Under the pieces are notes generated by a model that saw only the letters and a program-made list of their open reading frames with translations, was not told where the DNA came from and searched no databases. Positions 61,713 through 63,838 of a stretch of 64,000 bases of DNA are shown in pieces. Made by a program: the position numbers and the translations under genes. The stretch's first letter is position 1, and each line of letters begins with the position of its first letter. Source of the DNA: a virus (taxonomy: Duplodnaviria; Caudoviricetes); IMG/VR virus record IMGVR_UViG_3300032226_000905, positions 22,276 through 86,275 of that record. The stretch is one strand, 5' to 3'.

Positions 61713-62288
61713 TTAAATATATTCAACATCTGCCGCTAGTATGAATCTATATTGATCACTTTGTACGATGCCAGGTCTATGCCATTGATCGGATGGGTAA
61801 ATCAGCCAGTTACCGTCTGTGGGCTTTACAAAAAATTTATCATTTTTTTCGGGGCCAGAAGGTGCCATTTCTGTTCCGCAGTAATCTCGGTCTTTGACAT
61901 CTTCGGGAATATGTAGATAAAAAATTCCACTCATCATCTTGGCATTTGGATTTTCTGGATGCCAATGGTTATGCCATAATTTTTCACGATCTTCGGCACC
62001 CTGGAGATTAGTCATAAACGACCAAGCCATCATGTTAGATATTTTGGCCTCTCGACCTAGATACATGAATACTGAAAAAAGAAAACTCATTCTATATTTG
62101 AGCCAAACAGATTCTGGTCTAGCAAATATATTTTCTTTAGTCTGATATTTAGGACTGTTGGTAAAATAATTTCCGTCGGCGATAATCGATCGTATAATGC
62201 CCACAGCAGAATCATTATCCTGTTTGGTAATTACACTACTAAAATCAAATTTTCTAAAAGTGTCGTTTTGATCGATTACTGTTATCAT
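61713..62288 (-). CDS. 2OG-Fe(II) oxygenase-like protein (HxH type)
   Basis: WHNH...SGIFYLHIP, LIYPSDQWH, RFILA. Confidence 0.75.
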   Translation of the reverse strand: MITVIDQNDTFRKFDFSSVITKQDNDSAVGIIRSIIADGNYFTNSPKYQTKENIFARPESVWLKYRMSFLFSVFMYLGREAKISNMMAWSFMTNLQGAEDREKLWHNHWHPENPNAKMMSGIFYLHIPEDVKDRDYCGTEMAPSGPEKNDKFFVKPTDGNWLIYPSDQWHRPGIVQSDQYRFILAADVEYI

Positions 62289-62304
62289 TGGGTATTTAAA
62301 TGAA

Positions 62305-62543
62305 TATCGATAGTAGCACTATAGTTTCGGTTCGAGGCGATGCTCGAGGCCACCCAGGCATTACAGCGCCTGCTACTTTAGTCCAGCCTAACATGGAATC
62401 CGTTATCTCGCAACAGCTTCGCTCTGTAAAAAGTTGTCTGTCATATTGAGACCAATAATGCACCTACGATGCACCAACTCTGCAGTTCCACCCGCTCGGT
62501 ATCGCCTTACGGTCATTGATCGGATCTTGTGCTACTATCGATA
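62305..62543 (-). ncRNA. Candidate structured ncRNA A (strand uncertain)
   Basis: 15-bp perfect terminal inverted repeat plus internal helices; abuts the tRNA CCA end. Confidence 0.5.
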
Positions 62544-62545
62544 AC

Positions 62546-62620
62546 TGGTTGCGGGGGACAGAATCGAACTGTCGATCTCCAGGTTATGAGCCTGGCGGGT
62601 TACCTCTTCCCCACCCCGCG
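62546..62620 (-). tRNA. Initiator tRNA-fMet (CAU)
   Basis: CGCGGGG...CCCCGCA-ACCA; C1:A72 mismatch; G11-C24; loop CUCAUAA; T-loop UUCGAUU. Confidence 0.93.
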
Positions 62621-62623
62621 ATA

Positions 62624-62792
62624 ACTTTAGTTGATAGTACTCGAGCCTTATAGGACTGAGCGGATTTCTGAGTGGAGTTCGATATTCCTCATAAGCCATT
62701 GCCCTCGGTTTTATCAGAAGAGTAAGATGGCCCTATTCTTCATGAGTCTGTGCGTCCACAAACGATACCCGCCGAATGCTATCAACTAAAGT
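62624..62792 (-). ncRNA. Candidate structured ncRNA B (strand uncertain)
   Basis: 14-bp perfect terminal inverted repeat; internal TTCTGA/TCAGAA and GAAGA/TCTTC helices. Confidence 0.5.
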
Positions 62793-63000
62793 GTCTAGCC
62801 ACGGTTCCCGGACCGCCCTAAACTGAGTTGTTACCCTGTCCGTTAGTATTTGCGTTTTATGTCGTCAGTTCTACTTCTGCCGCCACGGTGTCTCAAGTCG
62901 TCCATATAACGGACCTTATGGTCATTACCGTTTGTACCCTGTCTGTATGGCTGCGACAATCGCCCACTTTATATAACGTAAAAGTGTAAACCGGGGTCTG

Positions 63001-63579
63001 TTACAGCAGGCCTTCTGTTTGAAGAACTGCTGCGGTTTCATCACTGAGAGGAATCTCAGTTTTGATATTGAGTTCAAGAATTTCGTCATTGAGCTTCTGC
63101 TTGGATTTTTTCAGGTTGAGGATTTCGGCCTTGGCCTGTGCGATCTGATCTCTGCTGACTATTGTGGTAGTCACTGTGTCGCCGTAGCCAAACACACGAC
63201 TACGTGCTTCGTCTTTGAGACTCTTGATTTTCTCCAACTTGCCTTTGATTATATCTAGAGATGTCATCTCTTTGGACTTGGCTAATTCCTCTAACTGACC
63301 AATTCTTTTATCAATGAACGCTGCTTTGGCCAGTGCAGTATCAATACCGCTGGCTGCATTAGCGGTACCGACTAGGGCACGGATATTGTACAACGCCATG
63401 GTCAACTTCTGTCGGCGGCTGTCGTTTTCTACTAATTGGCTGTTAGCCTTGGCGATAATATCCTCGACATTCTGAAACTCGTTGAGTTCAACATCTAGAT
63501 CGACTTTGATGGCCTTTACGGCATCATTGATGCTGTTTTGTACAGCATTGGCTTTTCTCAGTGTAATGTTCATTCCCAT
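63001..63579 (-). CDS. Coiled-coil hypothetical protein
   Basis: 192-aa helical ORF coupled to rpoZ. Confidence 0.6.
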   Translation of the reverse strand: MGMNITLRKANAVQNSINDAVKAIKVDLDVELNEFQNVEDIIAKANSQLVENDSRRQKLTMALYNIRALVGTANAASGIDTALAKAAFIDKRIGQLEELAKSKEMTSLDIIKGKLEKIKSLKDEARSRVFGYGDTVTTTIVSRDQIAQAKAEILNLKKSKQKLNDEILELNIKTEIPLSDETAAVLQTEGLL

Positions 63580-63797
63580 TTTCCTTTTTCTTTGCGAGGC
63601 AATTTTTTCATGTAATCTTCTTTAGTATAAAGACCTTCTTCGATTTCCTTTAAGGCAGTTACGATCGGTCCGTTGTCTGTAGCGACCCTTGCCTGCGATC
63701 CTTGCCTAAGTTCTCTAGCTCTTTGGCTAGCGCCGAGAACTAGATCGAACAATCCACCGTATTTCAATGCTGCTTTTTGAGAAGTAATCCTAGCCAT
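63570..63797 (-). CDS. rpoZ: RNA polymerase omega subunit homolog
   Basis: MARIT...FDLVLGASQRAREL..G...IVTALKEIEEG matches the RpoZ consensus. Confidence 0.88.
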   Translation of the reverse strand: MARITSQKAALKYGGLFDLVLGASQRARELRQGSQARVATDNGPIVTALKEIEEGLYTKEDYMKKLPRKEKGKWE

Positions 63798-63809: not shown

Positions 63810-63838
63810 ATTATAGTGACGGTTTGAGGAAAGGTCAA
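63810..63838 (-). promoter_or_regulatory. Sigma70-type promoter of rpoZ
   Basis: TTGACC-17nt-TATAAT. Confidence 0.8.

Follow-up and report, generated by a model that had tools for sequence, protein, structure and literature searches.

Two families of folded RNA, which we call element A and element B, flank a tRNA gene in the DNA of the uncultured phage analyzed here, and comparison with relatives supports reading both as structured phage RNAs that had not been catalogued before and that lie on the tRNA strand. Judging from where they occur, A and B are optional, exchangeable cassettes of phage tRNA arrays and are unrelated to each other. We think it rather probable that both belong to one early tRNA-strand transcript, that their ends are set by tRNA processing, and that their interiors would most likely act in trans.

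The window, meaning the whole 64,000-nt stretch that was analyzed, is the final 64 kb of an 86-kb IMG/VR viral contig. CheckV gives a completeness of 23% for these 86 kb, so the contig is a fragment of a very large phage. A, B and the tRNA sit in a 712-nt intergenic spacer (62289-63000), and the features in and around this spacer are as follows.

61713-62288, minus strand: 2OG-Fe(II) oxygenase-like gene (PF13759, 28.1 bits, cut-off 27)
62305-62543, minus strand: element A, structured RNA of 239 nt (covariance model R1, 271.7 bits)
62546-62620, minus strand: tRNA-Met(CAU), initiator-type, with an encoded CCA at 62546-62548 (ARAGORN; Rfam tRNA, 62.7 bits and alignment)
62624-62792, minus strand: element B, structured RNA of 169 nt (covariance model R2, 190 bits)
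62793-63000, minus strand: element U, putative third structured RNA of about 205 nt in a 208-nt interval (from covariation)
63001-63579, minus strand: 192-aa gene without a Pfam family, read as a coiled coil by eye only
63570-63797, minus strand: RNA polymerase omega homologue (rpoZ), 75 aa (PF01192, 38.1 bits, cut-off 26)
63810-63838, minus strand: sigma70-like promoter, TTGACC-17-TATAAT (consensus match only, 11 of 12 positions)

The initial annotation of this DNA described a long inverted repeat closing each element, and an inverted-repeat search found both where it had placed them. The arms of A (62305-62319 and 62529-62543) are 15 nt long, 100% complementary and separated by 209 nt; by chance, a spacer of 712 nt would be expected to hold about 2e-4 perfect inverted repeats of 15 bp. 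The arms of B (62624-62643 and 62773-62792) are 20 nt long and 90% complementary, made up of a 14-bp perfect run, one mismatch, and 5 further pairs. The start codon of the oxygenase-like gene lies 16 nt past the end of A.

Typically, bacterial initiator tRNAs are marked by a CAU anticodon, a C1xA72 mismatch, and three G-C pairs adjoining the anticodon loop. The tRNA between A and B had been read as an initiator, and it does have the CAU anticodon, the C1xA72 mismatch and an encoded CCA. The Rfam alignment gives it two of the three G-C pairs beside the anticodon loop, the third being A-U, and we call it initiator-type on account of the mismatch.

Syntenic loci were gathered with two flanking proteins, using the 2OG-oxygenase-like gene as the downstream anchor and the 192-aa gene as the upstream anchor. 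This recovered 126 syntenic loci, which reduce to 69 distinct spacers of 108 to 3727 nt. In these relatives the spacer is built from modules, namely an array of tRNA genes (Met, Pro, Arg, Gly, and sometimes Cys) interrupted by inserts that vary. Two families of inserts, 200-260 nt long and at first taken for RNAs, are small protein genes; one product is omega-like with about 75 aa, and the other has about 60 aa. The omega-like (rpoZ-like) gene lies inside the tRNA array after tRNA-Met, at the position of A, in 17 distinct relatives (e.g. L016:4633-4882 and L027:1656-1900); the omega gene of the window lies upstream instead (63570-63797). The gene for the conserved protein of about 60 aa has its own Shine-Dalgarno sequence and is embedded between tRNA-Pro and tRNA-Arg/Gly (e.g. 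L012:2555-2755).

For element A, an initial alignment of 8 distinct relatives (MAFFT and RNAalifold) gave a minus-strand structure of 68 pairs, with compensatory changes in 23, and a consensus folding energy of -67.7 kcal/mol on the minus strand versus -42.4 on the plus strand. Widening the family with covariance model R1 and pattern scans brought in 33 distinct sequences from viral and metagenome contigs. In the resulting alignment (A6), which like its counterpart for B is fitted to a covariance model and so biased towards structure, a bias mitigated by controls with slid partners and by the independent MAFFT/RNAalifold runs, compensatory changes affect 57 of the 68 helix pairs, and pairing extends to 96.6% of cells. 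With the partners slid, 35-41% of cells pair, and no shuffle reached the observed values.

The consensus fold of A is multi-branched, with 12 helices, and is closed by a 15-bp clamp, P1 (62305-62319 with 62529-62543), in which all 15 pairs covary. Several parts of the interior are invariant in the family: a GNRA hairpin (62505-62512), the loop GUGGAA (62486-62491), the strand UCCAUGUUAGGCUGGAC (62381-62397; UCCAUGUUARGCURGAC across the family), the loops UUACAG (62424-62429) and GCUGUAA (62361-62367), and AAACCAAA near the 3' end. The last two of these loops could form 6-7 Watson-Crick pairs with each other in 33 of 33 members, compared with 0.5% of shuffled loops. Because both loops never vary, covariation is silent about this loop-loop pairing, and it is their complementarity that suggests it.

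The initial annotation also proposed a further helix in A between GAGGCGATGC and GTATCGCCTT. This helix can form here, but it is not conserved, with just 63% (minus) or 71% (plus) of family cells paired, and in this region covariation supports two local hairpins instead. In the P2 of A we noted the sequence GGUCCGA as a candidate Ro-binding helix; this candidate was dropped, as the identity is short and there is no model match and no Ro gene.

Element B was found by its core pattern in other phage arrays, between tRNA pairs of Leu/Ser, Leu/Glu, Leu/Val, Tyr/Asp and Glu/Leu. An initial alignment of 17 sequences had 31 of 44 pairs compensatory. Consensus folding of B gave an energy of -49.1 on the minus strand versus -39.6 on the plus strand. 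In the family alignment (A7; 35 distinct members, model R2, with the same bias towards structure and the same safeguards as A6), 38 of 44 pairs show compensatory change and the paired share of cells is 98%, versus 34-45% with partners slid. The consensus fold of B is also multi-branched, with 8 helices and a pseudoknot. Covariation is seen in 17 of the 18 pairs of its P1, and the interior includes the hairpin GUUUGUG-GACG-CACAGAC (62746-62763). In the pseudoknot, the hairpin loop GGGCCAU (62727-62733) pairs with the downstream strand AUGGCUU (62693-62699), and three mutually compensating versions of this pairing are seen in the family, namely GGGCCAU/AUGGCUU, GGCAU/AUGCU, and GGCGA/UCGCU.

Even in the most divergent members (L187, L185 and L026), the loops of A and B are unchanged while P1 changes wholesale, and in divergent members of A such as L187 and L089 the closing stem has been wholly replaced. 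Given that P1 is swapped by compensatory change while the loops stay invariant, these sequence comparisons show that the interior folds of A and B are under selection, whatever the sequence of the clamp. The same turnover of closing stems bears on two details that had been noted earlier. A GATAG/CTATC core is indeed common to both stems in the window, and an AGTTAT-CG junction does precede both the tRNA and A here, but neither is a family feature, as closing stems differ in other members. We also considered the GATAG core as a recognition motif and rejected it, since it is missing in many members.

Single-sequence folding of A or B alone does not distinguish the strands, and to that extent the initial annotation was right to leave the strand unsettled. 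The comparative data do separate them. Besides the consensus energies given above, which favor the tRNA (minus) strand for both elements, G-U cells outnumber A-C cells in the minus-strand reading by 372:13 in A, which fixes the strand of A as minus, and by 121:5 in B. The family alignments of A and B have no coding signal, in that neither a 3-base periodicity nor a conserved open frame is present. The covariation found among homologues (57 of 68 pairs in A, 38 of 44 in B) thus agrees with the earlier description of A and B as structured RNAs.

On the antisense strand of B (62668-62700, plus), there is a resemblance to the 3' half of a tRNA, consisting of a T arm (GGAGTTCGATATTCC), seven bases, and CCA. 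Relatives show this look-alike more cleanly (GGAGTTCGATTCTCC); most of the 35 members have it, and several have lost it. It was rejected as the identity of B, being missing in several members and lying on the strand that is disfavored, and it may at most be a relic of B's origin.

We compared A and B with catalogued RNAs at several levels of stringency. At the gathering score, the sole Rfam 15 match in all 64 kb was the tRNA. At E<=10, Rfam 15 returned no family for A, B or U in the region 62100-63200, only tRNAs and chance matches, so that the families named in the initial annotation (6S, GOLLD and ROOL) matched neither A nor B. A divergent array (L187) searched with Rfam 15 at E<=5 gave tRNAs, chance matches and one weak YrlA-like match, with neither A nor B matched. 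A distant blastn search of 62250-63050 against cultured-phage DNA gave matches confined to the tRNA, and the exact core patterns of A and B were found in none of 185,579 prokaryotic species, represented by one genome each. In the literature we found no description of the A or B family, with a catalogue of 10,006 viral structured-RNA candidates (PMC10690425) standing outside the comparison. Short resemblances by eye to RNase P RNA, SRP RNA, a group I intron and tmRNA had no Rfam or ARAGORN support and were discarded.

A and B each occur once in the part of this genome that is known. In five large relatives (214-353 kb), A was found in none, and B gave one match each in four, one of these being partial at a contig end. 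A relative that is 98% complete has neither element, so A and B are dispensable. Each is also found without the other, and they are therefore independent modules. For the same reason we rejected the idea that U, B, the tRNA and A make up a single GOLLD-like RNA with a tRNA in its linker, given that each module occurs without the others.

In many relatives the copy of B belongs to a second tRNA array that lies 1-3 kb upstream of the 192-aa gene, with tRNA-Leu on one side of B and tRNA-Val or Pro on the other (e.g. L040:2727-2900 and L041:2382-2555). In this window the second-array region, upstream of the unit formed by omega and the 192-aa gene, falls beyond the contig end.

Both families keep close to the ends of tRNAs. 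In 27 of the 28 copies of A that have an upstream tRNA, A starts 2-5 nt past the CCA of tRNA-Met, Pro or Gly, and in most copies it ends 5-8 nt ahead of tRNA-Arg, Ile, Gly or Val. For B, the first strand of P1 begins within the CCA of a tRNA-Leu, Tyr or Glu (at -3 or -4; CCAUUA...UAAUGG) in 24 of the 35 copies, and most copies with a following tRNA end 3-14 nt ahead of it. In the window, U stands in place of the upstream tRNA, and the B stem ACUUUA...UAAAGU is followed by UAU and then by the tRNA. The orientation of A and B is the same as that of the tRNAs throughout. The tight spacing to tRNA ends would fit release by tRNA processing, as the initial annotation had suggested when it spoke of co-processing.

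One copy of B (L185:2788-2939, minus strand) lies among protein genes, with a terminator-like hairpin on one side and the ribosome-binding site of the next gene on the other, and its closing stem is different and longer. Since this copy is outside any tRNA array, tRNA processing is not required for every member of the B family.

A scan of the minus strand from the promoter (63810-63838) to A found no terminator-like site. Based on this and on the sigma70-like promoter ahead of rpoZ, the promoter, rpoZ, the coiled-coil gene, U, B, the tRNA and A apparently form one early transcription unit.

In the reading that we favor, a single early transcript would run from this promoter through rpoZ, the coiled-coil gene, U, B, tRNA-fMet and A. 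The ends of A and B would be defined by RNase P cutting at the 5' end of the next tRNA and by trimming to the CCA of the previous tRNA, because the P1 clamp begins near or inside the preceding CCA and ends 3-14 bases before the next tRNA. What would be left are discrete RNAs with their ends buried in a clamp of 15-20 bp, which would protect them from exonucleases and keep them from disturbing the folding of the tRNA. In the window, the clamp of B would also close off the 3' end newly formed on the upstream mRNA, and the clamp of A the 5' end newly formed on the downstream transcript. The conserved interiors, meaning the multi-helix junction and H-type pseudoknot of B and the GNRA hairpin and two complementary loops of A, would then carry the function, most likely as a surface recognized in trans by a partner from the host or the phage.

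U, which the initial annotation did not flag, begins at the stop codon of the 192-aa coiled-coil gene and ends with a GUUUAG...CUAGAC helix that abuts B. It is kept in most relatives and folds into at least 6 helices, with 20 of 32 pairs compensatory and 94.9% of cells paired versus 35-48% with partners slid; its single-sequence fold is unremarkable (z = 0.35). Between U and tRNA-fMet there is a slot that in relatives is empty (a spacer of 9-10 nt), filled by B, or filled by one of at least seven other unrelated modules, making at least eight modules in total (example alleles are L046, L023, L047, L100, L009, L093, L003 and L018). The modules are 82-350 nt long, most are closed by stems of 17-21 bp, and some are little more than long hairpins. 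Most of them have outer ACUUUA/UAAAGU bases in common and a spacer of 3-4 nt to the tRNA. Homing endonucleases were considered as drivers of cassette exchange and rejected, as the ORFs in the larger spacers are unlike them by eye.

A and B could alternatively be purely cis-acting spacers or insulators, in which only the clamp counts and the interiors have no function in trans. Such a clamp could spare the folding of the tRNA, provide a double-stranded processing site of the RNase III kind as in rRNA operons, or protect mRNA ends from tRNA excision. That so many unrelated stem-closed modules can fill one slot, most of them with common outer clamp bases, fits a merely structural role of the clamp, and empty alleles and the dispensability of A and B point the same way. 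The stalks cut by RNase III in bacterial rRNA operons offer a parallel in how they work only: there, too, long-range pairing surrounds a stable RNA in a transcript with tRNAs, whereas the stems of A and B are 15-20 bp long and AU-rich, and RNase P together with 3' trimming could suffice to account for their ends. Against a role in cis only, the interiors of A and B are conserved where P1 has been completely replaced, with invariant loops, a covarying pseudoknot, and compensatory change in every inner helix, and a bare clamp would not need this conservation. We consider it unlikely that the clamp is all that counts; it is the large number of modules interchangeable in the slot that leads us to retain this alternative.

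Non-tRNA RNAs in phage tRNA clusters have precedents. The T4 record includes the small stable RNAs species 1 (rnaC, 139 nt) and species 2 (rnaD, 119 nt), which lie inside the tRNA gene cluster, on the tRNA strand and adjoining a tRNA, and A and B resemble them in position and strand as far as can be read from the DNA. Model R2 gave no match to the T4 cluster at E<=0.01, and R1 with its filters off gave nothing beyond short hairpin matches scoring at most 12 bits. The T4 rnaC also differs in having a tRNA-type T arm and no long end-to-end clamp, while A and B, besides being larger, have cores with a pseudoknot or putative kissing loops.

GOLLD (RF01998) and ROOL (RF03087) are ornate phage and prophage RNAs that are often near tRNA islands and in which kissing loops are central, and one GOLLD was first discovered downstream of a Met-tRNA (PMC12286853). 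A and B are likewise phage-encoded and beside tRNA islands, and A has its invariant complementary loops. In contrast, A and B have no Rfam match, measure 239 and 169 nt compared with about 580 and over 800 nt, and are separate modules rather than domains of one RNA.

YrlA (RF02553) and other bacterial Y RNAs share with A and B a long stem formed from both ends and a structured module at the far end. One could imagine A and B as Y-RNA-like RNAs or as decoys for proteins of RNA surveillance or defense (Ro/Rsr, anticodon nucleases), within the counter-defense role proposed for phage tRNA arrays. Their nature as accessory, swappable cassettes in a hypervariable region would suit this, as would the array of L187, which holds 14 tRNAs, divergent copies of both A and B, and also an element between two tRNAs (L187:745-857) with a sub-threshold YrlA match (41 bits for a gathering score of 69, E = 3e-7). 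However, A and B themselves match neither the Y_RNA nor the YrlA model and have no tRNA-like domain on the sense strand. The TROVE/Ro gene (PF05731) was found in none of the five large related phage records, one of them 98% complete, in which control profiles did match. We regard this explanation as improbable.

6S RNA is a largely double-stranded rod with a large central bubble resembling an open promoter; it binds the sigma70 holoenzyme and templates a product RNA. The initial annotation held that A and B are novel phage RNAs, possibly decoys for RNA polymerase, with the nearby rpoZ as a hint. The first part stands, in that they are structured, are uncatalogued and lie on the tRNA strand. 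As for the second, A and B do have closed 5' and 3' ends and sizes comparable to 6S RNA (RF00013), and a genuine omega gene (PF01192) heads the transcription unit, so one may picture them binding the polymerase holoenzyme together with the phage omega. But A and B have no 6S match at the gathering score or at E<=10, and in place of a rod with a central bubble they show multi-branched folds that include tertiary pairings. Nor is the link to omega specific, as the omega gene is in or beside the array in relatives regardless of whether A or B is present, and in the 17 distinct relatives mentioned above an omega-like gene fills the slot of A. A 6S-like role is therefore very improbable.

We give the same low standing to the idea that A and B are ribozymes that help to process the array themselves. 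Their compact folds with a pseudoknot or kissing loops, their invariant unpaired nucleotides, and their location exactly at tRNA ends would all be expected of such ribozymes, but no known self-cleaving class was matched, and a cut leaving a cyclic phosphate at A76 would be incompatible with a chargeable tRNA.

Least credible is that the inverted repeats are the ends of a MITE-like mobile DNA element with incidental RNA folds, a possibility raised in the initial annotation: presence and absence vary at fixed sites and different modules of one slot have outer repeat bases in common, but the stems evolve by compensatory change with G-U pairs tolerated on one strand only, the orientation is always that of the tRNAs, there is zero or one copy per genome (including the records of 214-353 kb), filled and empty alleles differ by no direct target duplication, and no transposase is nearby.

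We thus favor the reading of A and B as RNAs released from an early tRNA transcript with interiors that would act in trans. A broader proposal, which we offer as a speculation with the odds against it, is that phage tRNA arrays carry general, exchangeable, stem-clamped RNA cassettes, or "RNA morons", of which A and B would be two complex members. Their cores might act in trans as decoys against the RNA-targeting defenses of the host, or A might oligomerize through UUACAG/CUGUAA in the manner of ROOL and GOLLD.

Few large and intricately folded RNAs are known whose function is not, and past examples turned out to be ribozymes, riboswitches, or unexpected RNA assemblies. A and B add two further classes of structured RNA, with U as a third candidate, and they come with unusually clean covariation and with working covariance models (R1 and R2). 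They also come with a genomic logic: tight docking to tRNA ends, a clamp that may include the CCA of the tRNA, and a polymorphic slot where clamped modules of unrelated kinds take each other's place. Together these features may provide a handle on a question that is 40 years old, namely what the non-tRNA RNAs in phage tRNA clusters are for.
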